Shown piece after piece: positions 6,111 through 41,140 of a stretch of DNA of 64,000 bases. The translations under genes were made by a program, and so were the position numbers. Numbering within the stretch: position 1 is the stretch's first letter; the number at the start of each line of letters is the position of its first letter. Under the pieces are notes generated by a model, which was given only the letters and a program-made list of their open reading frames with translations, had not been told where the DNA came from and ran no database searches. The stretch comes from a virus: the IMG/VR virus record IMGVR_UViG_3300030419_007002, positions 40,347-104,346 of that record, one strand, 5' to 3'.

Positions 6111-7171
6111 AAAAAGTATTAGTTACAGGAATCCTAGGGCAGGATGGCGCTAACATGGCGGAGTTTTTACTATTTGAAAACGAAGAGCCAGTCCAAGTCT
6201 ATGGAATGATGCGCAGAAGCTCTATACCTAATTTTACAAACACAGATAAATTTAGATATCATGAAAATTTTGAGTTTGTGCATGGTGATCTTTCTGATGA
6301 CGTCAGTCTCGATAACCTAGTAAAAAAAATTCAACCAGACTACTTCGTTAACTTCGCAGCAAACTCTTTTGTTGGTTGTTCTTGGGATATGCCAGAGCAA
6401 GTCATGGATGTTAACACCCTTGGCGTCCTTAGGTGCTTGGAGTCTATACGTAAGTTCAAGCCAGATTGTAAATTTTACAGCGCAGGAAGTAGCGAAGAAT
6501 GGGGGGACGTAGACTATTCACCCCAAGACATAAAGCACCCCATAAAACCCAGAAGCCCCTACGGAGCGTCAAAAGCAGCAGCTAGACATTTAGTAAAAGT
6601 TTACAGAGAATCGCACAATCTTTACGCAGTTCACGGAATACTCTTCAATCACGAAGGGACCAAGAGGGGGGAGGAGTTTGTTACTAGAAAAATAACGAAA
6701 GCAGTTGCAAAAATATATAACCAGAAACGGATTGGGCAAAAAATTACACCAGTTGAGCTTGGAAACCTAGACGCTAAACGCGACTGGAGCGATAGTAAGG
6801 ATTTTGTGAAAGGGGTATGGCTAATGCTTAACCAAGAATCCCCCAAAGACTATATATTGTCGAGCGGAGAAACGCACTCTATAAGGGAATTTGTAGAGCT
6901 AGCCTTCAAGGAGGCAGGAATAGAAGGTCAATGGAAAGGCGAGGGGGTGGAAGAAACTTACAATCTTAAAGATTCTGATCCTAGTCGATATTCTTCGGGA
7001 GAAACATTATTAAAAATAAATAAAAAATTTTACAGACCAGCAGAAGTAGACCTCTTATTAGGAGACTCCAGCCCCATAAGAGAAGAATTAGGCTGGAAAC
7101 CAGAAATTTCATTTGACAATCTAGTAGCAAGTATGGTACAATATGATATTGGATTGTTAGATGGCAAATAA
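6107..7171 (+). CDS. gmd: GDP-mannose 4,6-dehydratase
   Basis: TGILGQDG, AGSSE, PRSPYGASK, GILFNHE, FVTRKIT, LGNLDAKRDW, RPAEVDLLLGD. Confidence 0.95.
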   Translation: MKKVLVTGILGQDGANMAEFLLFENEEPVQVYGMMRRSSIPNFTNTDKFRYHENFEFVHGDLSDDVSLDNLVKKIQPDYFVNFAANSFVGCSWDMPEQVMDVNTLGVLRCLESIRKFKPDCKFYSAGSSEEWGDVDYSPQDIKHPIKPRSPYGASKAAARHLVKVYRESHNLYAVHGILFNHEGTKRGEEFVTRKITKAVAKIYNQKRIGQKITPVELGNLDAKRDWSDSKDFVKGVWLMLNQESPKDYILSSGETHSIREFVELAFKEAGIEGQWKGEGVEETYNLKDSDPSRYSSGETLLKINKKFYRPAEVDLLLGDSSPIREELGWKPEISFDNLVASMVQYDIGLLDGK

Positions 7172-7535
7172 GACGGATCATAATAAATGTAAAATGATTG
7201 TATCCAAGCTCGTCTCTCAGACGAGATGGGATGGCTCTAAAAATCCCATTAGTTGGCCTAAAGAAATCAAAATAGCCAAACAGTTAATTAAAAAGTTTCC
7301 ACAAGAAAAGTTTTGGAAAACTTTATTTATAGAAGAAAAACCCACTTCCTTGTCTTGGTTTTTGACCACGGAAGGTAACATAATTTTATGTCAGCACAAC
7401 CTGAAAACAAACAAAAAAGAAACCACGGGGCTAGCTAAAATAGCTGAAGTAAAAATGAACTCCACCAAGCTAGGTGAAGACAAAAACGTGTCGCTACCCC
7501 CGACAAACATTATGGAATTCATGAAGGATGACTAA
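7161..7535 (+). CDS. Hypothetical protein
   Basis: 124 aa ORF overlapping both neighbours. Confidence 0.6.
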   Translation: MANKTDHNKCKMIVSKLVSQTRWDGSKNPISWPKEIKIAKQLIKKFPQEKFWKTLFIEEKPTSLSWFLTTEGNIILCQHNLKTNKKETTGLAKIAEVKMNSTKLGEDKNVSLPPTNIMEFMKDD

Positions 7536-8616
7536 GAAAAAAACAGATAACGTTTCTCCCCTCCAACAGATACAAGCTTACTTGGAGCAAAACAAAGGAG
7601 ATCATTACAACTTTGAAGAAGAGAGGGTATATACCGTCTCTAGCGGCAGCTTATTATTAGATATAGAAATGGGTGGTGGAATAAAACCCGGAGTAGTAAG
7701 AGCCTCTGGAGTTACAGAGGGAGGCAAAACCTCTTGCGGCTTAGCTTTCGCCAAGAATTTCCAGAAGATGGATAACAGTATGGTTATCTATATCAAAGCA
7801 GAGGGTAGACTATCCGTAGACATGATAGAAAGAATGGGAATTGACACTAGCGAAGAAAAGTGGTTTGTTTTTAAATGTAATGTTTATGAAACTGTAATAG
7901 ATTTTATGAGGCAGATGGTGAAAGATAACCCATCAGATACTCGTTATATGTTCATCATAGACTCTATGGATGCTTTAGTCCCCAAGGGGGATCTCGAAAA
8001 AGGCGCAGACGAAGCACTCAAGGTCGGCGGCGGAGCTTTACTAAGCTCAGACTTCTTGCGCCGCATGGCGCTGGGGCTAGCGACAAGAGGTCATATATGC
8101 TACATGATTTCTCAAGTACGCAGCACAATAAAGATTAACCCATACGAAAAATCTGACCCGCAAGTCACAAACGCTTCGGGCGGAAATGCCGCGCTCCATT
8201 ATAGCGATTGGATTTTAGAATTTCAGCCCAGATATTTAAAAGACCTGATCACCACTCAGCCGAACGGCAAAGGTGATCATCTTGGACACTGGTGCAAGGT
8301 GGTTTTTAGAAAGACTCCTAACGAAAAAACTGGCGTGTCTGTTCGTTACCCTATCCGTTACGGCAGAAAGCACGGCAAGAGCATCTGGGTTGAAAAAGAG
8401 GTTGTCGACATGATGCTTATGTGGGGAATGGCCACAGCAAAAGGTGCTTGGGTTACAATTTCAGACGAAATAATAGAAGAAGTAAATAAAGAAACAGGGG
8501 TCGAGATTAAAAAGCAGCATCAAGGCATGGACAACTTTAGTAAATACTTCGAAGAAAACAAAGAAATAGGAAAATATTTATTTTATAAATTTAGAGAAAC
8601 GCTAAAAAAATCTTAA
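7528..8616 (+). CDS. RecA/UvsX-like recombinase
   Basis: SSGSLLLD, Walker A GVTEGGKTS, Walker B IIDSMDALVP, ISQVR, SGGNA; divergent, phage-type. Confidence 0.9.
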   Translation: MTKKKTDNVSPLQQIQAYLEQNKGDHYNFEEERVYTVSSGSLLLDIEMGGGIKPGVVRASGVTEGGKTSCGLAFAKNFQKMDNSMVIYIKAEGRLSVDMIERMGIDTSEEKWFVFKCNVYETVIDFMRQMVKDNPSDTRYMFIIDSMDALVPKGDLEKGADEALKVGGGALLSSDFLRRMALGLATRGHICYMISQVRSTIKINPYEKSDPQVTNASGGNAALHYSDWILEFQPRYLKDLITTQPNGKGDHLGHWCKVVFRKTPNEKTGVSVRYPIRYGRKHGKSIWVEKEVVDMMLMWGMATAKGAWVTISDEIIEEVNKETGVEIKKQHQGMDNFSKYFEENKEIGKYLFYKFRETLKKS

Positions 8617-8626
8617 GAAGAATTTT

Positions 8627-8703
8627 GCTCTCGTAGCTCAATTGGATAGAGCATCTGTCTTCTAAACAGAGGGTTCTGGGTTCAAGTCCCAGCGAGAGTA
8701 CCA
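8627..8703 (+). tRNA. tRNA-Arg(UCU) with encoded CCA
   Basis: Acceptor GCTCTCG/CGAGAGT, D arm GCTC..GAGC, anticodon arm TCTGT-CTTCTAA-ACAGA, T loop GGTTCAAGTCC, ends ACCA. Confidence 0.95.
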
Positions 8704-9827
8704 TGAATAAAAGCGATACAAAAAAACTTAAAAATTTTTATGAATCCTTAAAGAGGGAGAAAGAGAGCTTCATAGGCTACCCAGTAAACACCTCCTTTGA
8801 TTATTCCGAGCTCTTCGAGTTCCTGTCTATCCCGCTTAATAATGTGGGCGACCCATTCTCTTCGAGTTATTACGGCCTAGACTCGAGAGAATTTGAAAGG
8901 GAGGTTTTGAATTGGTTTGCAAAACTACATAACGCTCCCCTTGATAATTATTGGGGATACGTAACCAATGGCGGAACAGAAGGAAACCTTTATGGGCTTT
9001 ACCTAGCTAGAGAGTTGTACCCCAAAGGGGTTGTGTATTATTCCCAAGATACTCACTATAGCGTAAGTAAAAACATTCGAGTATTAAATATGGAAAATGT
9101 GATGATTAAGTCCCGTCGCAATGGGGAGATGGATTATCAAGACTTTAAAGACATGCTCTCTAGCTGGAGATCTGCACCGCCCATAATATTCGCTAACGTA
9201 GGGACGACGATGAGAGAAGCCTTTGATAGTGTATCTGAAATTAAAAAAGTCTTGAAAGAGTTAGCGATACCAGAATATTATATTCACGTAGACGCAGCGT
9301 TAGGTGGCATGACTCTTCCGTTTATTGAAGGCTCTCCCAAATTTGATTTTACAACAGGTGTTCAAAGCATGTCTATAAGTGGACATAAGTTTATAGGTTC
9401 CCCCATGCCCTGCGGCGTAGTACTAGCCCTTAAGAGCAACGTGGGCAGGGTATCCAGAGCCGTAGAGTATGTGGGTTCACTAGATAGCACCATTAGCGGG
9501 TCAAGAAATGGATTCACTCCGATACTCCTGTGGTACGCAATTAAAAGGTATGGATTTAATGGGTTCAAAAAAGTCGTAAGGCAATGCGTGAGAACCGCAG
9601 AGAAAGCCGTAAGGAAATTTAACGAAGCAGGTATAAAGGCTTGGAAAAATGATCACTCTATAACAGTTATTTTCCCTAGGCCAAGCTATAAAATAAGCAA
9701 GAAATGGAAGCTTGCCGTTCAAGATGACATCGCCCACATAATTTGTATGCCTCAGGTTGATGATAAAACCATAGACTCGATAATAAAGGATATCCTAGAA
9801 GATGAGCCAAAGAAAATATTTGGATGA
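8703..9827 (+). CDS. PLP-dependent group II decarboxylase, histidine decarboxylase (Morganella type) / serine decarboxylase family
   Basis: GYP, LNNVGDP, WGYVTNGGTEGN, THYSV, HVDAALGG, SGHKFIGSPMPCG, ISGSRNG; 374 aa. Confidence 0.9.
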   Translation: MNKSDTKKLKNFYESLKREKESFIGYPVNTSFDYSELFEFLSIPLNNVGDPFSSSYYGLDSREFEREVLNWFAKLHNAPLDNYWGYVTNGGTEGNLYGLYLARELYPKGVVYYSQDTHYSVSKNIRVLNMENVMIKSRRNGEMDYQDFKDMLSSWRSAPPIIFANVGTTMREAFDSVSEIKKVLKELAIPEYYIHVDAALGGMTLPFIEGSPKFDFTTGVQSMSISGHKFIGSPMPCGVVLALKSNVGRVSRAVEYVGSLDSTISGSRNGFTPILLWYAIKRYGFNGFKKVVRQCVRTAEKAVRKFNEAGIKAWKNDHSITVIFPRPSYKISKKWKLAVQDDIAHIICMPQVDDKTIDSIIKDILEDEPKKIFG

Positions 9828-9858
9828 CCCCAATTTCCACCGTATAATTAATAGCCTC

Positions 9859-10269
9859 ATGAATATAAAATTAACAACTGTAGCGGTGAGCGGATACTTT
9901 GACCCTCTCCACGTGGGGCATATAGAGATGCTAGAAAAAGCGAAATCCCTAGGGGATAAGCTAATTGTTATAGTTAATAATGACGCCCAAGCTAAACTTA
10001 AAAAAGGCAAGTCATTCATGAGCCAAGAGGATAGGCTAAAAATCATAAGGTCGCTGAAATGCGTAAATGAAGCGTTCATTTCAATAGATGAAGACTCATC
10101 TGTATGCAAGTCGCTAGCCGCCTGTAAGCCAGATATTTTTGCCAACGGTGGAGACAGAATAGAGGAGGAAATCCCCGAATCGCTTATCTGTAGGGAGCTC
10201 GGAATAGAAATGGTAGACGGACTTGGCGATAAAATAAGATCATCATCAGACTATACAGGACTTAAATGA
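9859..10269 (+). CDS. HIGH-family nucleotidyltransferase (HldE domain II / TagD-like cytidylyltransferase)
   Basis: SGYFDPLHVGH, LIVIVNND, FANGGDR, SSS. ATG at 9859 preferred over 9802, which overlaps the upstream gene. Confidence 0.85.
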   Translation: MNIKLTTVAVSGYFDPLHVGHIEMLEKAKSLGDKLIVIVNNDAQAKLKKGKSFMSQEDRLKIIRSLKCVNEAFISIDEDSSVCKSLAACKPDIFANGGDRIEEEIPESLICRELGIEMVDGLGDKIRSSSDYTGLK

Positions 10270-11036
10270 AATTTTTAGTAATAGGAGATAGCTGTACAGA
10301 CAAATTTATCTACGGCAAATGCGAAAGGATATGCCCCGAAGCACCCGTGCCAGTCTTTAATCCGATAAAGGAAACCACCAATGGGGGCATGGCAGCTAAC
10401 GTGAAAGCAAACGTTGAGTCTTTGGGCGTAGAATGTGATTTAATAACTCACGAAAATCAGATAGTTAAAACTAGATATGTAGATATTAAAACTAATCAAA
10501 TGCTTCTGCGGGTCGATGAAAACGATGAGGCCATGGGAAAATTCAACCACGGAGAAGTAGATTGGAAAAAATATGATGCAGTTATTATTTCTAATTACGG
10601 AAAAGGTTTTCTCAACGGAATGAGTGATGTTAGAAAAATATGTTTAGAGCATGATAATGTGTTTTTAGATAGTAATAAATGTAAGATAGATACAGATTTA
10701 CCTTTAAATTTAAGATTCTTAAAAATAAATGAGTATGAACTAGAAATTAATCCTCACCTCAAGAGTCATCTAGAGCCAGACGTTGGATTTATGACAAATT
10801 ATACTAGGCCAGATCAAATTATAATTACTCTGGGCCATAAGGGGTGCAGTTATATGGGTAAGACTTACCCGCCGCCCAAGCGCGTTGTCGCTCAAGATTT
10901 ATCTGGCGCAGGAGACACTTTTTTAGCAGCATTAGCCGTCTCCATAATGAAGGTCAACGAAGTAGAAATGGCTATAGAATTTGCAAACGAATGCGCTTCG
11001 AAAGTAGTTGAGAAAAGGGGAGTAAAAACAGTATGA
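10266..11036 (+). CDS. PfkB-family sugar kinase, HldE/RfaE domain I-like (heptose-7-phosphate kinase-like)
   Basis: VIGD..D, RICPEAPVPV, GMAANV, QMLLRVD, DLSGAGDTF. Confidence 0.85.
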   Translation: MKFLVIGDSCTDKFIYGKCERICPEAPVPVFNPIKETTNGGMAANVKANVESLGVECDLITHENQIVKTRYVDIKTNQMLLRVDENDEAMGKFNHGEVDWKKYDAVIISNYGKGFLNGMSDVRKICLEHDNVFLDSNKCKIDTDLPLNLRFLKINEYELEINPHLKSHLEPDVGFMTNYTRPDQIIITLGHKGCSYMGKTYPPPKRVVAQDLSGAGDTFLAALAVSIMKVNEVEMAIEFANECASKVVEKRGVKTV

Positions 11037-11968
11037 TTTATTTAGATGATTTAACAGTTAAAGAATTGCTTGATAACAAGTGGCTTGAAATTGCTGAAGC
11101 CGTTGAGGAAGCATTTGTTGACCCAACGGCAGACATGGTTCCTAAAGTTTACCTTGAAGCAGGTAACGCTGGGGATTATAGGGCCATGCCAGCAGCATTA
11201 GGTGGCTACGCCGCTTTAAAATGGATTGGTGTGTTCCCTGACAATAAAAAACACAGCCTTCCGACCACCATTGGTTCACTTATTCTTAACGATAGATACA
11301 CGGGTCAGCCATTAATAGCAATGGACTGTACGACACTGACTGCGTATAGAACCGCCGCCACTTCCGCGATTGCTGCAAAATATTGCGCTCCAGACGCGGA
11401 AGAGTTTGCAATTATTGGTTGCGGGATACAGGGGAGGTACCATATCGAAGCCTACGAAGCCATTTGTCAAGGCCACATGAAGTTAAGCATAGAGCTTTAC
11501 GATACCAACGAAAGCCCCATGTTGCAAATGTTTAATTGGCTTGGTAGAGAAAACCTTTGTCATGCTTGGGGCAGAAATAAGTCAGTAAAAGAAGCCGTTA
11601 AATACGCAGACGTTATCACGACACTCACGCCCTCGACTGAGGGCTATCTAAATATACTTGATCTTAAAAGTAATTGTCATGTAAATGCAGTTGGCGCAGA
11701 CGCCGTGGGTAAGCGTGAATTAATGACTAATGTAATTGACGGAGCCGCGAATATCATTTGCGATGACCCAACGCAAGCTCTGCACTCTGGAGAATTACAA
11801 TACAATGAGTGGCCTCATTTAGATGTTAGCTCCATGAATCATCTCATCAGGAATCATAAAACCATGCAGTTAGACAGGGGCGTGTCAATATTTGACTCGA
11901 CAGGGGTGGCGATAGAAGATATAGCTATCGCAGAATTAATCTATAGGCTTCACAATGGACAAAAATAA
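11033..11968 (+). CDS. Ornithine cyclodeaminase / mu-crystallin family protein
   Basis: RAMPA, LTAYRTAATSAIA, GCGIQG, AVGAD, FDSTGVAIED. Confidence 0.9.
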   Translation: MIYLDDLTVKELLDNKWLEIAEAVEEAFVDPTADMVPKVYLEAGNAGDYRAMPAALGGYAALKWIGVFPDNKKHSLPTTIGSLILNDRYTGQPLIAMDCTTLTAYRTAATSAIAAKYCAPDAEEFAIIGCGIQGRYHIEAYEAICQGHMKLSIELYDTNESPMLQMFNWLGRENLCHAWGRNKSVKEAVKYADVITTLTPSTEGYLNILDLKSNCHVNAVGADAVGKRELMTNVIDGAANIICDDPTQALHSGELQYNEWPHLDVSSMNHLIRNHKTMQLDRGVSIFDSTGVAIEDIAIAELIYRLHNGQK

Positions 11969-12101
11969 TTTACTAAAATGGAAAATTCGCCGTTTAGAAG
12001 CTAAAATAAGTAAGCTAGAAGAAGAAAAAAGAACCTTGAAAAAGCGTCATAAACATCAAAGAAGTCGTGATAGAAAGGTATATATTCAATGCCGATGCTG
12101 A
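11955..12101 (+). CDS. Possible small basic coiled-coil protein (48 aa), not in ORF track
   Basis: ATG at 11955, MDKNNLLKWKIRRLEAKISKLEEEKR..., fills a gap but overlaps the next ORF. Confidence 0.35.
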   Translation: MDKNNLLKWKIRRLEAKISKLEEEKRTLKKRHKHQRSRDRKVYIQCRC

Positions 12102-12474
12102 AGAATTATTTTATAATAAATTAAATAATTTACATGATAAGTATGTTTATCATCTTATATTAAGCGGAGTAGCAGATAAAGGCACGGATATTGAGTCTAT
12201 AAAAATGACCAAAAATCCGCTTGCAAACAAAAAATATTGCGAAAAAATAGTGGGCGGGTTGGTAAATATCAAACCACAAATAATATCGAGCCTAAAAGAA
12301 GATGGAAAAGCCAAACTAGAGTGTATTTTTACAAAGATAGAAGACAATAAATACTTAAACCATATCTACATGATACAGAATGTTATGGATTGGCCACAGC
12401 TAGACAAGTTCAGCTGCCAAATATGGTATCTCGGAGAGACTGGGCTTGAGGACATTAAAAAAATTTGGGATTAA
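12067..12474 (+). CDS. Hypothetical protein
   Basis: 135 aa ORF in co-directional gene run. Confidence 0.6.
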   Translation: MIERYIFNADAEELFYNKLNNLHDKYVYHLILSGVADKGTDIESIKMTKNPLANKKYCEKIVGGLVNIKPQIISSLKEDGKAKLECIFTKIEDNKYLNHIYMIQNVMDWPQLDKFSCQIWYLGETGLEDIKKIWD

Positions 12475-12479
12475 TTTAA

Positions 12480-12965
12480 ATGAATACTTTTACTAAATGG
12501 TTTCTGATTAATGCGGTCATGGGAACTGCCGTTTTTTTTGCAGAACAAAAGGGCGCGGTATCTACCGTAATTAAAAATGACTTATCATATATTTCTATTT
12601 TGATAATGGCACTATACGTTGGAGTTTCTATTTACGTAGGGAGATTATGTTACTTAGCTGACAAAATAAATAAGAAAAGAGAAGACGACGCCAGAGAATA
12701 TTTACTAAAACGATCAGACTTGGGGTGGTTCTCTGCGGAACATTTTTTCTCATTAGGGCTATTGGGTACGATCATAGGACTAATCTTCGCAACGAGAGGA
12801 AGTCTCGATTCATCACTACCAGTAGCAGATATAGTTGCGGGATTAAAAGAAGGGCTCAACACAGCCTTTTACACAACCGTGTGCGGAATTGTATTTAGCT
12901 TACCGCTACAGGTACAATTGGTAATTTTAAAATTTAAGCTAGAAACTCATGGCCATAAAACCTAA
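12480..12965 (+). CDS. MotA/TolQ/ExbB proton-channel family membrane protein
   Basis: Four hydrophobic segments; SLGLLGTIIGLI and GLNTAFYTTVCGIV match the conserved TM pair of the family. Confidence 0.8.
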   Translation: MNTFTKWFLINAVMGTAVFFAEQKGAVSTVIKNDLSYISILIMALYVGVSIYVGRLCYLADKINKKREDDAREYLLKRSDLGWFSAEHFFSLGLLGTIIGLIFATRGSLDSSLPVADIVAGLKEGLNTAFYTTVCGIVFSLPLQVQLVILKFKLETHGHKT

Positions 12966-13110
12966 CAGAAGCGAAAGGCTCATCATAGTCATTGTGGCTT
13001 CAGCTGCGATTGGCTTTACGCTAGGGGTTCTGTCCATGGAGCAAAAGGTAAAAGAAAAAGACGAACAAGTAGAAGAACTACTTGGCGCAGTAGAGGATTT
13101 ATTAAAATAA
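12949..13110 (+). CDS. Small single-pass membrane protein (53 aa), not in ORF track
   Basis: MAIKPNRSERLIIVIVASAAIGFTLGVLSMEQKVKEKDEQVEELLGAVEDLLK; TAATG coupling to the next gene. Confidence 0.65.
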   Translation: MAIKPNRSERLIIVIVASAAIGFTLGVLSMEQKVKEKDEQVEELLGAVEDLLK

Positions 13111-13703
13111 TGAGAAAATTTTTTTCATTCAGGCCATTCATTGACGTTTTGTTCTGCTGCCTTCTTATGTTGGTGGCGATCTTATTTCTGCTAAAGACAG
13201 AGGAAGAGAAAACTAAGTCTCGCCCTCCTAATGTGATTTATGAAATAGTACTGACTTGGGATGGAGACAGTGAAGATGATCTAGACATCTATGTGCAAGC
13301 TGCATCGGGGCACAAGGTATACTTCAACAATAGGGAGGGCGGAGAAGGCAGTCTTATAAGCTTAGACCATGACGCGTTAGGCAAGCGAAGAAATAATAGC
13401 CTATCCCAAGGGCAAGAAGGGACTGTTGTAAAATTCAACGAAGAGATAGTCTCGTTTAGAGGGGTAACCGAAGGAGAAAACATAGTCACCGTTCACGTAT
13501 ATTCGAAAAGAGATGAAGAACCAACAGTAGCCACAATTAAATTAATAAAAATTAAACCATTCAGAGAAGTCATCACCAAGCAAAGACAATTCTCCACCAC
13601 GGGGCAAGAAAAAATAGCCTTCAGGTTTAAAACAGACAAGGACGGAAACATCTTAGACGTAAATGAGTTACCAGCTAATTTAGTAAATCAATTAGGAGAA
13701 TAA
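13110..13703 (+). CDS. ExbD/MotB-like single-pass protein with YfaP/DUF2135-like extracytoplasmic domain
   Basis: N-terminal PFIDVLFCCLLMLV matches the ExbD/TolR TM with its conserved Asp; followed by LTW...DDLDIYV. Confidence 0.7.
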   Translation: MRKFFSFRPFIDVLFCCLLMLVAILFLLKTEEEKTKSRPPNVIYEIVLTWDGDSEDDLDIYVQAASGHKVYFNNREGGEGSLISLDHDALGKRRNNSLSQGQEGTVVKFNEEIVSFRGVTEGENIVTVHVYSKRDEEPTVATIKLIKIKPFREVITKQRQFSTTGQEKIAFRFKTDKDGNILDVNELPANLVNQLGE

Positions 13704-13705
13704 TC

Positions 13706-14704
13706 ATGAAACCATTAGTAGCAGTAGTAGACTGGAAGCAATCACCAAGAGGTGATGAAAGTTGCTATATAGAAAAAGAGGCTATTGGTAATAGGGCGCG
13801 AGTTAAATATTTTAAATGCGATACGGATAAAGACTGGAAAGGGGAAGTATTAAAATCGGACTATATCCTCTTATGGCACAATACAAGTATGCCCGATACA
13901 GTAATAAACAAGCTGGAAGACTGCAAAGCAATAATTAGAATTGGCACCGGATATGATTCAGTCGATTATATTGCGGCCGCAACCAGAGACATCCCAGTTT
14001 GTAACGTTCCAGACTACGGAACAGATGAAGTTGCAGATCACTCCATAGCCTTAGCGCTTGCCCTTTGTCGCCAAATTATACCCATTGACCAAGAATGTAA
14101 AAACCTTGGTTGGGACATACCAAACAAAAATAAGATTCAAAGATTTGGAGAAATGATGTTCGGGGTTATAGGGCTAGGCAGAATTGGAACATCTGTCGCC
14201 CTAAAGGCTAAAGCTCTCGGATTTGAAGTTCATTTTTATGACCCCTACCTTTCTAATGGCGTCGATAAATCCCTAGGTATAGCTAGAAGTAAAAATCTCG
14301 ATAATTTTTTAGGCATGATGGATATAGTGTCCATTAATTGCCCGCTAACCGAAGAAACTCATCATATGATTACGAAGAGGGAGCTTAAAATAATGAGAAA
14401 AAATGCTTTCATTGTTAATACAGCGCGTGGATCCATTATAAAAAAGAAAGATTTATTCTCCTCCCTCAGAAAAAATGATATAGGTGGCGCAGCCCTTGAT
14501 GTAATAGAAGACGAGCCATTGAAGACAAAAAAAGAAGCCGAAACCCCCAACCTAATTGTAACGTGTCATTCTGGATTTTACAGTATCCAAGCTGCATGGG
14601 AAATGAGACATAAGGCAGCATCAATCGCACGAGATATGATCTTAGGAGAAGATATAGAGAATTGTATTAACTGTAATTTTTTACCAAGGAATTTTATAAA
14701 ATGA
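13706..14704 (+). CDS. D-isomer-specific 2-hydroxyacid dehydrogenase (CtBP-like)
   Basis: GTGYDSVD, NVPDYG, GLGRIG, CPLTEET, VNTARG, LDVIEDEP, CHSGFYS. Confidence 0.9.
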   Translation: MKPLVAVVDWKQSPRGDESCYIEKEAIGNRARVKYFKCDTDKDWKGEVLKSDYILLWHNTSMPDTVINKLEDCKAIIRIGTGYDSVDYIAAATRDIPVCNVPDYGTDEVADHSIALALALCRQIIPIDQECKNLGWDIPNKNKIQRFGEMMFGVIGLGRIGTSVALKAKALGFEVHFYDPYLSNGVDKSLGIARSKNLDNFLGMMDIVSINCPLTEETHHMITKRELKIMRKNAFIVNTARGSIIKKKDLFSSLRKNDIGGAALDVIEDEPLKTKKEAETPNLIVTCHSGFYSIQAAWEMRHKAASIARDMILGEDIENCINCNFLPRNFIK

Positions 14705-15213
14705 TTTATTTATTATACGGACAACCGGGATCAGGCAAAACAACTCTGGGAAGTATGTTGGCCAGAGAAATAGACACCCCATTTTTTATAGATGGAGATG
14801 AATTTCGTAAAATGTTTTCACGCCAGAACCTCGGGTACGGAAAGGCGGGCAGAACCAAGAACATAAGGAATGTCAATGCGGTAGCAACCTTTTTAAATAA
14901 GAAAGGTAAAAGTGAAGACTGGATGTGCATTTATGTTCGTGACAAAAACAACCCCAACAGTATAGAGGGGATAAGCGTTAACAACGAAACTGATGTAGTT
15001 CTAAGTTTTGTTAACCCTTATGCAGAGCTAAGAGAAGAACTGAGGGTAGACAATAAAGGGCAAGTGGTAGAGATTTTATTAAAGTCAGACAGAGATCTAA
15101 GGAAAGAATATCATGTTGAAGACTTCGAAGAAGGCAACCCAGATCACAGCATATCCACAGACAAAGATGTTACAGAAGGTTGGGCTGAATTAAAAAATTT
15201 ATTAAAATTATGA
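14701..15213 (+). CDS. Adenylyl-sulfate kinase-like P-loop kinase (CysC-like)
   Basis: GQPGSGKTT, IDGDEFR, GY.K.GR..N, SFVNPY...R. Confidence 0.7.
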   Translation: MIYLLYGQPGSGKTTLGSMLAREIDTPFFIDGDEFRKMFSRQNLGYGKAGRTKNIRNVNAVATFLNKKGKSEDWMCIYVRDKNNPNSIEGISVNNETDVVLSFVNPYAELREELRVDNKGQVVEILLKSDRDLRKEYHVEDFEEGNPDHSISTDKDVTEGWAELKNLLKL

Positions 15214-15425
15214 AATTAATATTACTACTAGCAGCTTTTTATTTAGTTGGATGTTGCTGCCCAACATGTGAGCCAACTATATATTACAGCCCTAGCGGTA
15301 AACCATTCCCTACTAGTTGGGGTAGTCCTCCAGAGATACAGACTAAAGACTATCGACCCCTGCAAGAAGGTTATGGGCATGGCAGCAGCACCTTATATCA
15401 TTGGATAGAGGAGAATCAAAAATGA
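15210..15425 (+). CDS. Small putative lipoprotein
   Basis: Signal peptide with lipobox LVG-C. Confidence 0.6.
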   Translation: MKLILLLAAFYLVGCCCPTCEPTIYYSPSGKPFPTSWGSPPEIQTKDYRPLQEGYGHGSSTLYHWIEENQK

Positions 15426-15877
15426 AAATATTACTATTCCTATTACTTACTAGTCTCTCTACCTACTCTCAAGTAGCTAGACCAACGTACAACCCATTCA
15501 ATAATGGAGGCATTCCATTTTACGGTCAAAATCAAATGAGGCCGCAAAATAATTACTACAATAACAATAACTTGTACAACAGACCGCAGTTTCCAAATAA
15601 TACAAACCATCCTTTGAATTTTCATCGACCAAATAATTTTGGGTTTCAGAATAATTTTCAAAGACCCCAGCAGTTCTTCCCGCAGAGTCAGCCGCAGCAA
15701 AATTGGCAGCAACCCCAAGTACAACCACAACAGCCTCAACCGCAGCAACCCGCTCCCCCACCAATGTTTACTAGAAAGTTCCATCTTAATAATGGATATT
15801 TATTCGGTAGGCCTACGCTATGGTACGACTCCAAATCTAACAAGATGCAGCCTTGGGTTAGGAAAAACCTAAGATAG
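15422..15877 (+). CDS. Secreted Asn/Gln/Pro-rich low-complexity protein
   Basis: Signal peptide MKILLFLLLTSLSTYS followed by N-rich then QP-rich tracts. Confidence 0.6.
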   Translation: MKILLFLLLTSLSTYSQVARPTYNPFNNGGIPFYGQNQMRPQNNYYNNNNLYNRPQFPNNTNHPLNFHRPNNFGFQNNFQRPQQFFPQSQPQQNWQQPQVQPQQPQPQQPAPPPMFTRKFHLNNGYLFGRPTLWYDSKSNKMQPWVRKNLR

Positions 15878-15886
15878 CTAAGCGTA

Positions 15887-16153
15887 ATGAAAGCTAAATT
15901 TCCAGAAGGTTACGGGGAGTACAAAGAGTATGATTTTGATAACAGGATCAGCTACGAAGAAGACTCTGATTCAATGTATATCTACGTCGCTCCGCCCCAA
16001 GGGCAAGTGGGGGCAGTAATGGTTTACAATGAAGATGGGTGTATGGTATCAATAGATACGGACGAAGTGAATACTCAAGTAGGTATTGAAATAATTGGCG
16101 TGTCTAAATTAATGGATAAATTTAATCTAAAGAATATAATAAAGAAGAACTAA
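15887..16153 (+). CDS. DUF2283-like protein
   Basis: ISYEEDSDSMYI ... IDTDE...VGIEII pattern. Confidence 0.6.
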   Translation: MKAKFPEGYGEYKEYDFDNRISYEEDSDSMYIYVAPPQGQVGAVMVYNEDGCMVSIDTDEVNTQVGIEIIGVSKLMDKFNLKNIIKKN

Positions 16154-16154
16154 A

Positions 16155-16328
16155 ATGGAAAATAAACACAGAGAGCCTTGGGAAATCATAGGCATCATAA
16201 CCTCAGGATATTTAGGAGTATTATTAGTGCATTGTGTACTTACGGCTATGGAGTATGGAATGTTAATTGTAAATTATAAAAAAGAATTTAATTTGGGAGA
16301 CTGCTTTCACGTGCCCTTATTAGTATAA
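16155..16328 (+). CDS. Small membrane protein (57 aa), not in ORF track
   Basis: MENKHREPWEIIGIITSGYLGVLLV...; TAATG coupling to the next ORF. Confidence 0.5.
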   Translation: MENKHREPWEIIGIITSGYLGVLLVHCVLTAMEYGMLIVNYKKEFNLGDCFHVPLLV

Positions 16329-16489
16329 TGCTTAAAAAAATTATATTAATATTTTTTGCAGTTTTAACTATTCTTTTTGTTATACAGGCATTACCTGTTA
16401 TACTTGCTATCGTTTATTTAGGGGGTTGGATGATATGGTGCGTTCTAACAGGGGATTCTTTTTGGGGTGAGTATGGCCCGTTTTGGTAA
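16328..16489 (+). CDS. Small hydrophobic membrane protein (53 aa), not in ORF track
   Basis: MLKKIILIFFAVLTILFVIQALPVILAIVYLGGWMIW...; ends 1 nt before the next ATG. Confidence 0.55.
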   Translation: MLKKIILIFFAVLTILFVIQALPVILAIVYLGGWMIWCVLTGDSFWGEYGPFW

Positions 16490-16490
16490 A

Positions 16491-16787
16491 ATGGAAAGTC
16501 GAAAAAAATTTATAAAATGCAGTTGTCACGGCGAAGGTATGCTACTTGCCAAGTTTGACGGCGAAGAAGAAATCTATGTTAGCTTTTGGCGAGAGGGCAT
16601 AAACCCCGTCAAATTAACTTGGTGGATGAGACTGAAGCTGTGTTACTTGGCTTTATTTAAGGGCAATTATTATGACGACCAGTTAGTTTTAAGTAAAGAA
16701 GAAGCAAGACAGCTTTGTACGTGGATTCAGGATGAATACGACATGGACGCGGTGGAAAGAGAGATGGAAAAAGATGTGGAACAATAG
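16491..16787 (+). CDS. Hypothetical phage protein
   Basis: MESRKKFIKCSCHGE...; start placed at ATG 16491. Confidence 0.65.
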   Translation: MESRKKFIKCSCHGEGMLLAKFDGEEEIYVSFWREGINPVKLTWWMRLKLCYLALFKGNYYDDQLVLSKEEARQLCTWIQDEYDMDAVEREMEKDVEQ

Positions 16788-17010
16788 AATCATAAAGCAC
16801 GAAAAGGATGGAGTCACTTGGCATAGTGTCCATGAAGTCTTTTACAATGAAGACGGTAGCATTTATGGTCACACCGAAGACCCAATTACTATCGTTGGAG
16901 AAACCGAAGAAGAAGCGGTAGAACAAGCGGAACAAATATTGAGAGATATTAAAGATACGCCAGTTCTTGTGGCGTCTGAAATAGAATTTAAAGACCATGA
17001 AGAAATATAA
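16774..17010 (+). CDS. Hypothetical phage protein
   Basis: MWNNRII...HEVFYNEDG...; start placed at ATG 16774. Confidence 0.65.
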   Translation: MWNNRIIKHEKDGVTWHSVHEVFYNEDGSIYGHTEDPITIVGETEEEAVEQAEQILRDIKDTPVLVASEIEFKDHEEI

Positions 17011-17350
17011 AAAAGAACGATTAGAGAAAAAAGGCTGGTCTGTTGGAGATACGGATGATTTTCTAAATGACGAGTCTCTTGAAGAATTTATGTCTAGTGA
17101 TTTTCCGAGGGTTTATATACATGACGTTAAAAATAACCCAGACGATACCTGCTCTATAGAAATTTCTACTAATAAAGCTTTTGACGAACTCTTTAAGAAA
17201 GAAAAAAATCGTAAGCGAGTTAGCAATAAAGGAATACAGGAGTTTTTTATAGAGCTACTCGAAAAGGGTCTAGCTAAAGAAGATGGGTACGATTTAAAGA
17301 CATTAGACAAGCGTAAGTCAAGTCGTAAGGCAAGTAAACTTTACAAATAG
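16997..17350 (+). CDS. Hypothetical protein
   Basis: 117 aa ORF in gene run. Confidence 0.6.
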   Translation: MKKYKKERLEKKGWSVGDTDDFLNDESLEEFMSSDFPRVYIHDVKNNPDDTCSIEISTNKAFDELFKKEKNRKRVSNKGIQEFFIELLEKGLAKEDGYDLKTLDKRKSSRKASKLYK

Positions 17351-17376
17351 ACGGACAAATGTAAAAAAGCTAAAAG

Positions 17377-17571
17377 ATGTTTAAAAGACTTTGGTTAATT
17401 TGGTCGAGGACGGTAGATCATCGCATTGGCAAAACCGACGATGACGCCCCAGATATTCCAATTTTAAAAAACAAAGATGCGAATATTAGTTTGTTAATAA
17501 GGACCGTAATCGTTATAATAAATGTAGTAACTTGTTTTTTTATTATAGCTAATGTGATAAGGCACTGGTAA
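17377..17571 (+). CDS. Small membrane protein
   Basis: 64 aa with C-terminal TM ending IANVIRHW. Confidence 0.6.
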   Translation: MFKRLWLIWSRTVDHRIGKTDDDAPDIPILKNKDANISLLIRTVIVIINVVTCFFIIANVIRHW

Positions 17572-17573
17572 AT

Positions 17574-18152
17574 ATGAATATAGCATTACCAATTTTATTA
17601 TTAGTATTTGGAGCACTGAGCTTTTGGATACTCACTGAATCAAGCGTTAGGTGGTATATCAAAACGGCTTGCATTACAACGTTTTGTTTATTCACGATCG
17701 TTTTTTGGACAACTATACACACCTTCTTGGGGTGGTCGGCTCACGAAGAATATATGCCTCAAAAAGTTTTGGTTCATTGGGTAATAATCAAAGAGCCCAA
17801 TAAAGTAACCGAGTCGAAAGGCTCTATACACATTTTGATAGAGTCCATAGAAGACGCAAAAGGAAATATGATTTCCAAATTCTTCGGCTACAGAACGGAT
17901 AAAATTGAGCCAAGGCTATTTGAACTAAAATACAACAGAGAGCTTCACGAAAAACTCGAAAAATTAAAACAGAGACTTAAACAAGGCCAACCTGTAGCTG
18001 GTAAATTCACCAAAGAAGGAGAGAAAGGAAAGGCTAAGGGTGGAAAGGGAAAGAAAAACGACAAGAACGGAGAGGGCAGCGAATCTCAAGAGCAAAGCTG
18101 GGAATTCCACGAATTATTACCATCAGAAATACAAGGGAAACCAGAGCGATGA
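17574..18152 (+). CDS. Two-TM membrane-anchored protein, candidate partner of the ExbB/ExbD-like pair
   Basis: Two N-terminal TM helices, then GW, IKEP, EPRLFELKYNRELH and a G/K-rich tail. Confidence 0.6.
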   Translation: MNIALPILLLVFGALSFWILTESSVRWYIKTACITTFCLFTIVFWTTIHTFLGWSAHEEYMPQKVLVHWVIIKEPNKVTESKGSIHILIESIEDAKGNMISKFFGYRTDKIEPRLFELKYNRELHEKLEKLKQRLKQGQPVAGKFTKEGEKGKAKGGKGKKNDKNGEGSESQEQSWEFHELLPSEIQGKPER

Positions 18153-18325
18153 AAGAAAAAATAAAAGAAGTATTAAAGCGTTACGAAAACATGCAGGTCA
18201 ACTTAGGCTCAGAAGTAGCTAGAGATATATTAGCAGAAGAAATACTTTCGGCGCTAGACCCAGAGAAAGAAACCAAAGAGTGGCTAGATAAAAACGATAA
18301 GACTAGTGAATGCGGAGGAGTATAG
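18149..18325 (+). CDS. Hypothetical protein (58 aa), not in ORF track
   Basis: ATGA overlap with the upstream stop; MKEKIKEVLKRYENMQVNLGSEVARDILAEEI... Confidence 0.5.
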   Translation: MKEKIKEVLKRYENMQVNLGSEVARDILAEEILSALDPEKETKEWLDKNDKTSECGGV

Positions 18326-18516
18326 TGCACGAATTCAAACTACCCCCCTATATATGCCCCTACGAAAAACGCAAGAAATTTTGCAGAAAAATAAGAGACA
18401 CTGAAAAAGAAATCCAAAACTTGAAAAGCGAGGGGCGTTGGAAAGAGGTCGCCCACTTACAATGTGTCTTAAGAAACTCTTGGTGGGGATACAAAAGATT
18501 TGCCGAAAACAAATAA
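18310..18516 (+). CDS. Hypothetical basic protein
   Basis: 68 aa ORF; GTG at 18325 is an alternative start. Confidence 0.5.
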   Translation: MRRSIVHEFKLPPYICPYEKRKKFCRKIRDTEKEIQNLKSEGRWKEVAHLQCVLRNSWWGYKRFAENK

Positions 18517-18527
18517 TTGTGTATAAT
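18500..18527 (+). promoter_or_regulatory. Putative sigma70-type promoter of tmRNA
   Basis: TTGCCG-16 nt-TATAAT, ending 7 nt before the tmRNA 5' end. Confidence 0.55.
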
Positions 18528-18534
18528 AATATAC

Positions 18535-18948
18535 GGGAGCGTACTGGATTCGATTTAGGGTCTTACGCCAGATTGCAAGTAGAGGATGATAGTTGGCCTC
18601 TTTAATAATCTATCTAGGAAACTTCAACTGCCGATAATATTGTTGATATGGCTCCTTCGCTTGACGAAGCTGATGCGATTCTCGCTAAGTTTGGTTGGAC
18701 CGAAGAGGCCGCGATGGCAGCATAGATTGCCCCGTCCTACTCCGGATGCTCGTTAAGGAGATAGGGCGACGACAGCGAGCAAAACACTGGTTGAGTCTGG
18801 TTGAGTCTCCAGTTGCTTAAAAAAAGATAGACCAAACCTTACGTGAAGTTGTCGGTCACAGACACGTATTGCATTAGATCGACTAAGCTTGTAGTAATTT
18901 GAGCCGATGGCTTTAAAGACGCGGGTTCGATTCCCGCCGCTTCCACCA
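18535..18948 (+). ncRNA. ssrA: tmRNA (one-piece); tag ORF 18630-18725
   Basis: 5' GGGAGCGTACTGGATTCGA pairs with 3' CGCTTCC-ACCA including G3.U70; T arm GCGGGTTCGATTCCCGC; tag ADNIVDMAPSLDEADAILAKFGWTEEAAMAA* after AACT. Confidence 0.95.
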
Positions 18949-18956
18949 ATTTTAAC

Positions 18957-19376
18957 ATGAGACTGTACAATATAAAGGGGAGGCTTCAAAGCAGGAATGT
19001 CTCCAAGTATCTCATAGACTGGGATGGAAAATCTAGGTCAAAAATACAATTCTCAGTAAAACAATTCTTAAAATCATTCTGGAAGAATCAAATAGTTTAT
19101 GAAGAGTTCCCCGTATACGGGACAAGGCTCAAGGTAGATATTTTAAATGCTACAAAGAAAATAGCGATAGAAGTACAAGGTAAACAACATAGTGAATTTA
19201 ACAAATTCTTTCATAAAAACAGTGCATCTAATTACCTTAGCTCTATAAAAAGGGACGTACAGAAAAGAGAGTGGCTTGAATTAAATAATTTTAAAATACT
19301 CGAGATAGAACAAGAGGATATAAACCAACTTTCTTTAGAATATATAGAAAAAACATTTAATGTCTCTATTTTATAA
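18957..19376 (+). CDS. PD-(D/E)XK endonuclease (DUF559/Vsr-like)
   Basis: EEFPV, KVDIL, IAIEVQGKQH, RDVQK..W. Confidence 0.75.
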   Translation: MRLYNIKGRLQSRNVSKYLIDWDGKSRSKIQFSVKQFLKSFWKNQIVYEEFPVYGTRLKVDILNATKKIAIEVQGKQHSEFNKFFHKNSASNYLSSIKRDVQKREWLELNNFKILEIEQEDINQLSLEYIEKTFNVSIL

Positions 19377-40315: not shown

Positions 40316-41140
40316 CTATAGCTTGTATACTTCCTTGCTAAGAAGCTTATATTCTGCCCATAATTTATCTCTAACCCCCGGGTCCTCGTTAAAAGAAAGG
40401 CTCCCCTTTCTCCTAAAGTAAGTATAAGTTTCTACACCGTTAGCTGGACAAGCAAATATGCCAGCCTTATGCATCTCTTCCCACAGCAGAAGATCTTCAT
40501 GAGCCATTAAACCTTCATGAAATAATTTTCCGTCCTCTGGTATAAGGGATTCGTGCATGAGAGTTGCCCAAGGGCCGAACCTTTTATTCATCACGTTTTT
40601 TTTTGCTTGGTGAGTAGTCCTAATCCATTCTTTTGGGGTTTCGGCCTCTATAGTGTAGTCTCCTACTACAAATTTTTTATTATGTTTTTTAGCGAAACTT
40701 ATTAATCCCCTAGCTTTTCCATCGTGAACCTCGTCATCTGCATCGCAAAGCAATATAGCTGGATAATCTTTTCTATAATGATTTATTTCTTTAATTATTC
40801 TATTTTTTGCCTGTGCGGCGCTCTCCGCTTTGCTAAAATAATGGGATTCAAAAACGTCTGCACTACAATATTTTTTATTATGATCTATTCTATCTTGAGT
40901 TTCGTCTGTCGAGCCGTCATTTGCCAACAGAAAAACCCAATTTAAGCCACTCATGGACCGTTCTACGCTTTCCAAAGCTCTGGTCAACCACTCGTTAGCG
41001 TTATGGGCAGACATCACCACCTGAAAGCCTGTATTTTTCCATAGTTGTTCGGGGGCATTTTTATTTAAGTTTATAAATTTTTTATGCCTGTCTATTAGAG
41101 TTTCTTCGGGTTTTCTAGGCTTCTTCAGTACATGAGCCAT
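40316..41140 (-). CDS. Glycosyltransferase family 2
   Basis: VVMSAHN, ANDGSTD, AKN, LCDADD, HED. Confidence 0.85.
   Translation of the reverse strand: MAHVLKKPRKPEETLIDRHKKFINLNKNAPEQLWKNTGFQVVMSAHNANEWLTRALESVERSMSGLNWVFLLANDGSTDETQDRIDHNKKYCSADVFESHYFSKAESAAQAKNRIIKEINHYRKDYPAILLCDADDEVHDGKARGLISFAKKHNKKFVVGDYTIEAETPKEWIRTTHQAKKNVMNKRFGPWATLMHESLIPEDGKLFHEGLMAHEDLLLWEEMHKAGIFACPANGVETYTYFRRKGSLSFNEDPGVRDKLWAEYKLLSKEVYKL

Follow-up and report, generated by a model that had tools for sequence, protein, structure and literature searches.

Can a single nucleotide serve both as the last base of a tRNA and as the first base of a start codon, and, if it does, how did the arrangement come about and how is the protein made? 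The question is raised by a 64,000-nucleotide stretch of phage DNA (the window; positions 40,347 to 104,346 of IMG/VR virus record IMGVR_UViG_3300030419_007002), in which a tRNA-Arg gene and hdc, the gene for a pyridoxal phosphate (PLP)-dependent decarboxylase, meet in one shared adenine. The record, which belongs to an uncultured marine phage, has a length of 104 kb and an estimated completeness of ~60%, and the window makes up its 3' 64 kb; the whole contig is called G000 here. Our preferred answer, to which we give a probability of roughly 60%, is that the overlap is a real junction of two functional genes, brought about by shuffling of a cassette made up of hdc with or without the following genes cyt and pfkB, and that it is a tolerated by-product rather than an arrangement selected for control.

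The nucleotide shared by tRNA-Arg and hdc

The elements at the junction are as follows.

7528 to 8616, plus strand: recA/UvsX-like recombinase open reading frame (ORF), 362 residues (Pfam RecA PF00154, E 3e-18), a core gene whose stop lies 10 nt before the tRNA
8627 to 8703, plus strand: tRNA-Arg(UCU), 77 nt, with a G1.U72 pair, discriminator A8700 and encoded CCA at 8701-8703 (ARAGORN, Rfam)
8634 to 8636, plus strand: in-frame TAG within the tRNA, which closes the hdc frame upstream
8703 to 9827, plus strand: hdc, histidine/serine-decarboxylase-type PLP enzyme of 374 residues (NF002748, 7erv, 8jij), with a start codon shared by relatives

ARAGORN places the tRNA-Arg (anticodon TCT at position 35) at 8627-8703, with the CCA included, as the sole tRNA in the window; it also reports a transfer-messenger RNA (tmRNA) at 18535-18948, and Rfam confirms both. 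The UCU anticodon sits in a 7-nt loop, and the Rfam RF00005 match, which covers 8627-8700 and ends at the discriminator, passes the cloverleaf threshold with 70.9 bits against a gathering score of 29. The junction reads CGAGAGT-A-CCA-TG-AAT, so that A8703 is A76 of the tRNA as well as the A of the ATG. An earlier note on this DNA had claimed exactly this identity, and ARAGORN, Rfam and the sequence itself agree with it; its further claim that the decarboxylase has no leader other than the tRNA is borne out by the position of the recA-like stop.

To judge the CCA, we surveyed nine related contigs, whose 25 tRNA and tmRNA genes all encode it. The trinucleotide at 8701-8703 is therefore not a chance occurrence, and the overlap joins two functional elements rather than a gene and three fortuitous letters. 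None of four genomes searched for a CCA-adding enzyme (PF01743), the complete genome G004 among them, encodes one. The tRNA-Arg acceptor stems of G004 and of another relative, G002 (locus L003), differ through paired changes. In the minimum-free-energy fold of 8610-8760 the acceptor stem is retained up to the AUG, with a z-score of -0.7 that is uninformative beyond the tRNA model.

The G1.U72 pair is uncommon among bacterial-type tRNAs. As a wobble atop the acceptor stem it occurs in 15 of 20 tRNA genes of this clade (Arg 7/7, Ile 3/3, Leu 4/5, Val 1/2, Gly 0/3), in which position 73 is A or G and the encoded CCA comes next (window, G002, G003, G004, G006, G007, L009 and L051).

The ORF at 8703-9827 is the sole long one at this place. 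Between the TAG at 8634-8636 and position 8703 its frame holds no ATG, GTG or TTG, and the next in-frame starts are a GTG at codon 48 and an ATG at codon 130, in keeping with the earlier note's estimate of about 128 codons for the latter. The NCBIfam equivalog NF002748 for histidine decarboxylase (HDC), a model of 382 positions, scores 517 bits (cut-off 305), with residues 2-368 of the ORF matching its positions 4-372, and residues 6-367 align to residues 8-372 of the solved HDC 7erv (E 3e-105). The hdc genes of relatives begin at the same codon, and in L002 and L005 an in-frame TAG stands directly before the TTG start. Given the closed frame upstream, the profile match from residue 2, the alignment to 7erv from residue 6 and the common start in relatives, we take 8703 as the start of hdc. 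Other start codons, any of which would have overturned the overlap, were considered and rejected: none exists from the TAG at 8634 to 8703, and codon 48 lies inside conserved sequence.

Pfam PF00282 (group II PLP decarboxylases) also matches hdc (E 4e-26), and the PLP-binding lysine lies in an S-x-H-K motif, with SGHKFIGSP in hdc aligned to SGHKMIGSP in 7erv. The plant serine decarboxylase 8jij scores nearly as well as 7erv (E 2e-100 vs E 3e-105). The product is thus predicted to be of the histidine-decarboxylase type, with scores that do not separate histidine from serine as the substrate.

Further evidence that both genes are in use comes from G003 (locus L004), the sole relative with the same junction as the window. 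Between the two, hdc has a nonsynonymous divergence (dN) of 0.096 with third codon positions just 47% identical, at which the Nei-Gojobori synonymous divergence (dS) is not computable, and the recA-like gene shows the same pattern. The tRNA-Arg is identical at 75 of 77 positions, with the third codon positions of the flanking genes at 47-48%. The junction is unchanged save for the discriminator, which is A in the window and G in G003, and the spacer before the tRNA differs in both length and sequence (10 nt in the window, 9 nt in G003). This pattern indicates that hdc and tRNA-Arg are both functional and have been under purifying selection since the two lineages split. As hdc was kept under selection at an unchanged junction, HDC must be translated from the ATG at 8703. 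It is hardly credible that this ATG is a false start or that hdc is decaying and no longer translated. No ribosome-binding site is available and the folded tRNA abuts the start codon, as such a reading would expect, but both the profile match and the structural alignment set in by residues 2-6, the hdc genes of relatives share this start position and have an in-frame stop right before it, a start at codon 48 would delete the conserved GYP...FDY block, and the low dN at strongly diverged third positions is the mark of purifying selection.

Relatives and the origin of the junction

Homologues of the tRNA-Arg were found with a DNA-pattern scan for the T-arm and acceptor arm, after which whole contigs were compared. 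All of them carry the encoded CCA, and they are followed by different genes at different distances.

Window and G003: hdc, spacer -1 nt
G004: homologue of an ornithine cyclodeaminase (OCD) gene, spacer 6 nt
G002: methyltransferase-like ORF, spacer 7 nt
L009: another ORF, spacer 12 nt
G006: homologue of cyt, with no hdc between, spacer 38 nt
G007: promoter-like intergenic region, spacer 107 nt

The decarboxylase gene was followed through a protein-based scan of viral contigs and a metagenome scan, giving ~30 hdc-bearing phage contigs in total. The viral scan yielded four hdc relatives of 79-86% identity, and only in G003 is a tRNA present; at the other 28 hdc loci (25 metagenomic and three viral) none adjoins hdc. 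The junction therefore occurs in 2 of ~30 contigs. Elsewhere hdc mostly begins with TTG or GTG at the same codon, and in a few cases at a nearby ATG or GTG. The commonest context is TAG-TTGAATAA, in which the start overlaps the stop of the upstream ORF, as it does for the TTG start in L002 and L005. Among the 25 metagenomic relatives, TTGAATAA coupling to the upstream ORF is found in ~13 and a GTG start in most others. In L003, hdc starts two codons farther upstream, after a terminator-like hairpin.

The phage-type hdc (73-84% identical) is present in at least 24 metagenome contigs (L037-L061), mostly marine by their record names (Tara Oceans-type, JGI), and is apparently carried widely by this phage group as an auxiliary gene. 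The upstream ORF, whose stop is usually overlapped by a TTG start of hdc in these contigs, contains FGGTCFPKD, which resembles the active-site motif of UDP-glucose dehydrogenase. Searches of a phage collection for cultured relatives, by DNA and by protein, gave only tRNA-level matches, 45% identity to the hdc of an Acinetobacter phage and at most 28.5% identity for recA.

The earlier note had proposed that the overlap could make tRNA processing and translation of hdc mutually exclusive. As a description of a conserved device this does not survive the comparison: the tRNA-Arg of relatives is separated by variable spacers (6, 7, 12, 38 and 107 nt) from unrelated genes, a finding that the note itself had named as a refutation, and 28 hdc loci have no adjacent tRNA. 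Judged from these loci, the junction is lineage-specific and not a conserved control device. The alternative offered by the same note, namely that an insertion at the 3' end of the tRNA left the overlap as a scar, has fared better. It is supported by the starts of hdc in relatives and by synteny with G004, for which the following features are needed.

8627 to 18948, plus strand: variable island of ~10.3 kb that opens with tRNA-Arg, closes with the tmRNA and is flanked by the core genes recA-like and orf139 (synteny table)
9802 to 10269, plus strand: cytidylyl/adenylyltransferase-like gene cyt (family matches, synteny)
10266 to 11036, plus strand: PfkB/HldE-kinase-like gene pfkB (family matches, synteny)
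11033 to 11968, plus strand: ornithine cyclodeaminase/mu-crystallin family gene OCD, whose G004 homologue (72%) lies 6 nt past the tRNA-Arg CCA
18535 to 18948, plus strand: tmRNA with encoded CCA (ARAGORN, Rfam); the next ORF, 18957-19376, starts 8 nt later, a second instance of the tight packing at the tRNA

Relatives have in common the core order gmd - orf124 - recA - orf139, and recA-like homologues are found in G003 (88%), G004 (81%) and G002 (45%). In G002, recA and orf139 are just 17 nt apart. Within the island, the order tRNA-Arg, OCD, orf161, orf197 matches that of G004 except for hdc-cyt-pfkB (8703-11036), which lies between the tRNA and OCD; relative to this complete genome, the block sits exactly at the tRNA 3' end. 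In addition, the hdc start in the window differs from the common TTG/GTG in its first base alone, and that base is A76 of the tRNA; the rearrangement breakpoint thus lies where the hdc start codon begins. We therefore propose that, in a variable island of tRNA and auxiliary genes of this very compact genome, an hdc(-cyt-pfkB) cassette ended up immediately behind tRNA-Arg, and that an ancestral TTG or GTG, coupled to an upstream ORF, would have become ATG by acquiring A76 as its first base.

The -1 spacing itself was compared with gene packing across these genomes, where neighbouring ORFs of the same orientation touch or overlap in 33-43% of pairs and are no more than 13 nt apart in 57-62%. Behind 13 of the 25 tRNA and tmRNA genes, the next ORF starts at most 13 nt away (-1, -1, 4, 6, 6, 6, 7, 8, 8, 11, 12, 12 and 13 nt). 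These spacers match the ORF-to-ORF spacing, and a value of -1, at the tight end of the genome-wide distribution, is not statistically unusual; it is also the only overlap that preserves both CCA and ATG. Short spacers behind tRNAs were for this reason rejected as a special feature. An enrichment of ATG after tRNAs was likewise considered as a mark of leaderless translation and carries no signal: ATG is used in 13/13 cases at ≤13 nt, but also at 90% of tight ORF-to-ORF junctions.

Expression of hdc across the junction

If the start codon is part of the tRNA gene, from which RNA is HDC made? Promoters and terminators were searched for by consensus matching only, with sigma-70-like models. The best promoter match lies well upstream.

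7113 to 7142, plus strand: sigma-70-like TTGACA-18-TACAAT with TG before the second hexamer (11/12 matches, consensus only)

This site is a candidate start of an operon orf124 - recA-like - tRNA-Arg - hdc and onwards. The scan found no promoter-like site on the plus strand in 8300-8703 and no promoter- or terminator-like site bordering the tRNA in 8300-8760, which makes it probable that the tRNA is transcribed within a polycistronic RNA. A separate primary transcript starting at or near 8703 from a promoter within the tRNA gene, which would give a leaderless hdc mRNA, appears very improbable. A leaderless ATG would fit it, and sigma-70-type promoters seem to be used in the clade (7113-7142, and ahead of the G004 tmRNA as read from its sequence), but there is no plus-strand hexamer pair inside the tRNA, the -10 position for a start at 8703 reads AGCGAG, and the tRNA, constrained to 75/77 in G003, could hardly encode a promoter as well. 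Promoters in the G000 contig are sigma-70-like in look despite very low Shine-Dalgarno use. G002 (L003 2388-2520) has a tRNA-Arg with its own sigma-70-like promoter, TTGACA-18-TAGCAT, that ends ~10 nt before the tRNA; here the methyltransferase-like ORF begins 7 nt past the CCA, the mRNA would have no 5' leader but the tRNA, and the flank is again CCATGA.

Translational coupling, a feature of the hdc genes in L002, L005 and the ~13 metagenomic loci, is absent from hdc in the window, where 87 nt separate the ATG from the upstream stop at 8616. A 4-mer match to the Shine-Dalgarno sequence is lacking in 80 of 105 ORFs of the G000 contig, and a GAGAG in the acceptor arm was for that reason given no weight as a Shine-Dalgarno element.

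In E. coli, tRNA genes that encode CCA are processed by an RNase E cut 1-3 nt past the CCA, after which exonucleases trim back (PMC2190699). At the window junction such a cut would fall within the first hdc codons, and a molecule matured in this way would lose its AUG. Under the E. coli model, and only under it, a CCA-ended tRNA and an intact AUG are thus logically mutually exclusive on each transcript. Along these lines, we suggest that the tRNA is transcribed within a polycistronic RNA from an upstream promoter and that canonical maturation (an endonuclease cut just 3' of the CCA plus exonuclease trimming) would remove the AUG. HDC would then come from transcripts whose tRNA 3' end is not matured in this way, or is cut 5' of A76, so that each RNA molecule would yield either mature tRNA or HDC; no evidence indicates that this partition is regulated.

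Could the phage nevertheless exploit the conflict? Ribosome loading at the AUG might compete with tRNA 3' maturation and couple HDC to the translational state of the infected cell, with HDC output dropping when tRNA-Arg matures fast, or the reverse. The exclusion of the two fates per molecule under canonical processing (PMC2190699), the retention of the junction in two diverged genomes and the evident importance of the tRNA to the phage, 51% of whose Arg codons are AGA, would all suit such a competition. Regulation of this kind is quite improbable all the same, given that the pairing of tRNA and hdc occurs in just 2 of ~30 hdc contigs, that relatives express hdc through ordinary translational coupling, that hdc is not enriched in AGA (7 of its 17 Arg codons, 41%, vs 51% genome-wide) and that no sensing element is visible. 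Nothing in the sequence data indicates a regulatory use of the junction. A different possibility is that the tRNA acts as punctuation: a cut 5' of A76, after C75 or, by an RNase Z/BN-like activity, after the discriminator, would release an mRNA that begins with AUG or CCAUG and is translated leaderless, the host's CCA-adding enzyme would repair the tRNA, and one transcript would give both products. The same logic would serve the other ORFs of the clade with starts 4-13 nt behind a tRNA or tmRNA. Several findings are compatible with this. In 13 of the 25 tRNA and tmRNA genes the next ORF starts too close (≤13 nt) to leave room for a ribosome-binding site outside the RNA gene, most ORFs lack a Shine-Dalgarno match anyway, and G002 shows a promoter-like sequence just before its tRNA-Arg. 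Moreover, hdc has been under purifying selection while fused to the tRNA and is thus translated despite a folded tRNA at -1, and there is a mitochondrial precedent (PMC8601606). Set against them, the spacers behind tRNAs follow the ORF-to-ORF distribution and need no special selection, and the uniform use of ATG after short spacers has little meaning where 90% of tightly packed ORFs use it. An encoded CCA normally inhibits RNase Z, and CCA encoded in 25/25 genes, with no CCA-adding enzyme in the four phage genomes, argues that it is used as such. We also found no paper on tRNA punctuation in phages or bacteria, or on an overlap of tRNA CCA and start codon in phages, in a search that lay outside subscription journals and brought up only mitochondrial work and general RNase reviews. 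Tied to this junction, tRNA punctuation with leaderless translation is unlikely, although we keep it alive because binding of the 30S subunit should suffer from a folded tRNA immediately before the AUG. Its extension to the whole clade, in which 3' processing of tRNAs and tmRNAs would release leaderless or near-leaderless mRNAs of auxiliary genes lying within 0-13 nt, with the cut at the window falling inside the CCA and a host enzyme completing the tRNA, is rather doubtful.

Several considerations weigh against our preferred reading of a tolerated product of cassette shuffling. The folded tRNA means that efficient HDC synthesis from unprocessed RNA is not obvious, which favours translation that depends on processing. 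The exact junction has been kept in two lineages although third positions fell to 47%, for which selection for the spacing could also be an explanation. E. coli-type 3' processing may not be that of the phage's host, and the route of expression is one that we infer. Finally, whether an insertion occurred in the window lineage or a deletion elsewhere is judged from the frequency of the arrangements and not from a rooted tree.

With respect to the codons served by the tRNA, AGA is followed among the Arg codons of G000 by AGG with 31%. The tRNAs of the clade (Arg-UCU, Ile-UAU, Leu-UAA, Val-UAC and Gly-UCC) mostly serve codons that end in A and thus suggest a host with a higher G+C content.

Known systems and the surrounding island

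By function, the nearest analogue is the tRNA punctuation of animal mitochondrial DNA, where tRNA and mRNA genes also overlap with shared nucleotides (PMC8601606). As in mitochondria, the tRNA would lie in a polycistronic unit without a spacer to the next coding sequence, the downstream mRNA would be leaderless and one nucleotide is claimed twice. However, mitochondrial tRNA genes do not encode CCA, and their shared nucleotides are restored after cleavage, whereas the base shared in the window is the A of an encoded CCA. The mitochondrial arrangement is also genome-wide and conserved, in contrast to the single lineage-specific junction described here.

The E. coli thrU-tyrU-glyT-thrT-tufB operon is a mixed tRNA-mRNA operon with encoded CCA, in which RNase E and RNase P effect the separation. 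It shares with the window (where this is predicted) the co-transcription of a CCA-encoding tRNA with a downstream protein gene. Unlike the window, which has no spacer, it possesses a tufB leader of ~100 nt with its own ribosome-binding site, and both products can come from one transcript.

By origin, the closest parallel is the ordinary gene overlap of compact phage genomes. The start/stop overlaps between ORFs (ATGA, TAATG) reflect the same packing pressure and spacing, and the TTGAATAA start of hdc in relatives is exactly of that type. An ORF-to-ORF overlap allows re-initiation by the terminating ribosome; after a tRNA, by contrast, no ribosome arrives, and instead of coupling there is a processing conflict. 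Large phages of the T4 type have hyperplastic tRNA regions. Here, too, tRNA genes stand among variable accessory genes whose content differs between close relatives, but no homing endonuclease or repeat was identified at the window junction, and a tRNA and a tmRNA mark the two ends of the island.

Since the best reading is one of cassette shuffling with a tolerated outcome, the arrangement is of modest general importance. It nevertheless offers a clean natural case in which a CCA-encoding bacterial-type tRNA and a conserved enzyme gene share one nucleotide and both are kept functional. As this holds at third positions diverged to 47%, a start codon set against a tRNA is evidently usable in some bacterial host. 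The junction is thus a substrate for asking how mRNAs just downstream of tRNAs are translated, and whether tRNA 3' processing makes leaderless mRNAs outside organelles; if the tRNA did act as punctuation, this would be a bacterial-virus counterpart of the mitochondrial system. For annotation, a rule that tRNA and protein genes do not overlap can delete a correct start codon.

The edges of the island are exact, with tRNA-Arg 10 nt past recA and the tmRNA 8 nt before orf139. It may be a mobile or hyperplastic cassette region with auxiliary genes (hdc, the HldE-like pair, OCD and ExbB/ExbD-like genes). As listed, the cyt ORF overlaps the 3' end of hdc by 26 nt (9802-9827). With the homologues in L011 and L012, which use a GTG start, the alignment begins only at residue 24, and cyt in the window therefore probably starts farther downstream than listed. 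At the other end of the island, the resume codon of the tmRNA may be miscalled in one group: the phage tmRNAs (window 18535-18948; G004 70910-71327; G002 16002-16402) have long tags of 30-31 residues (ADNIVDMAPS...AAMAA), and ARAGORN gives a shorter tag, starting EADEILAKFG, for the tmRNA copies of G004, G007 and G001.

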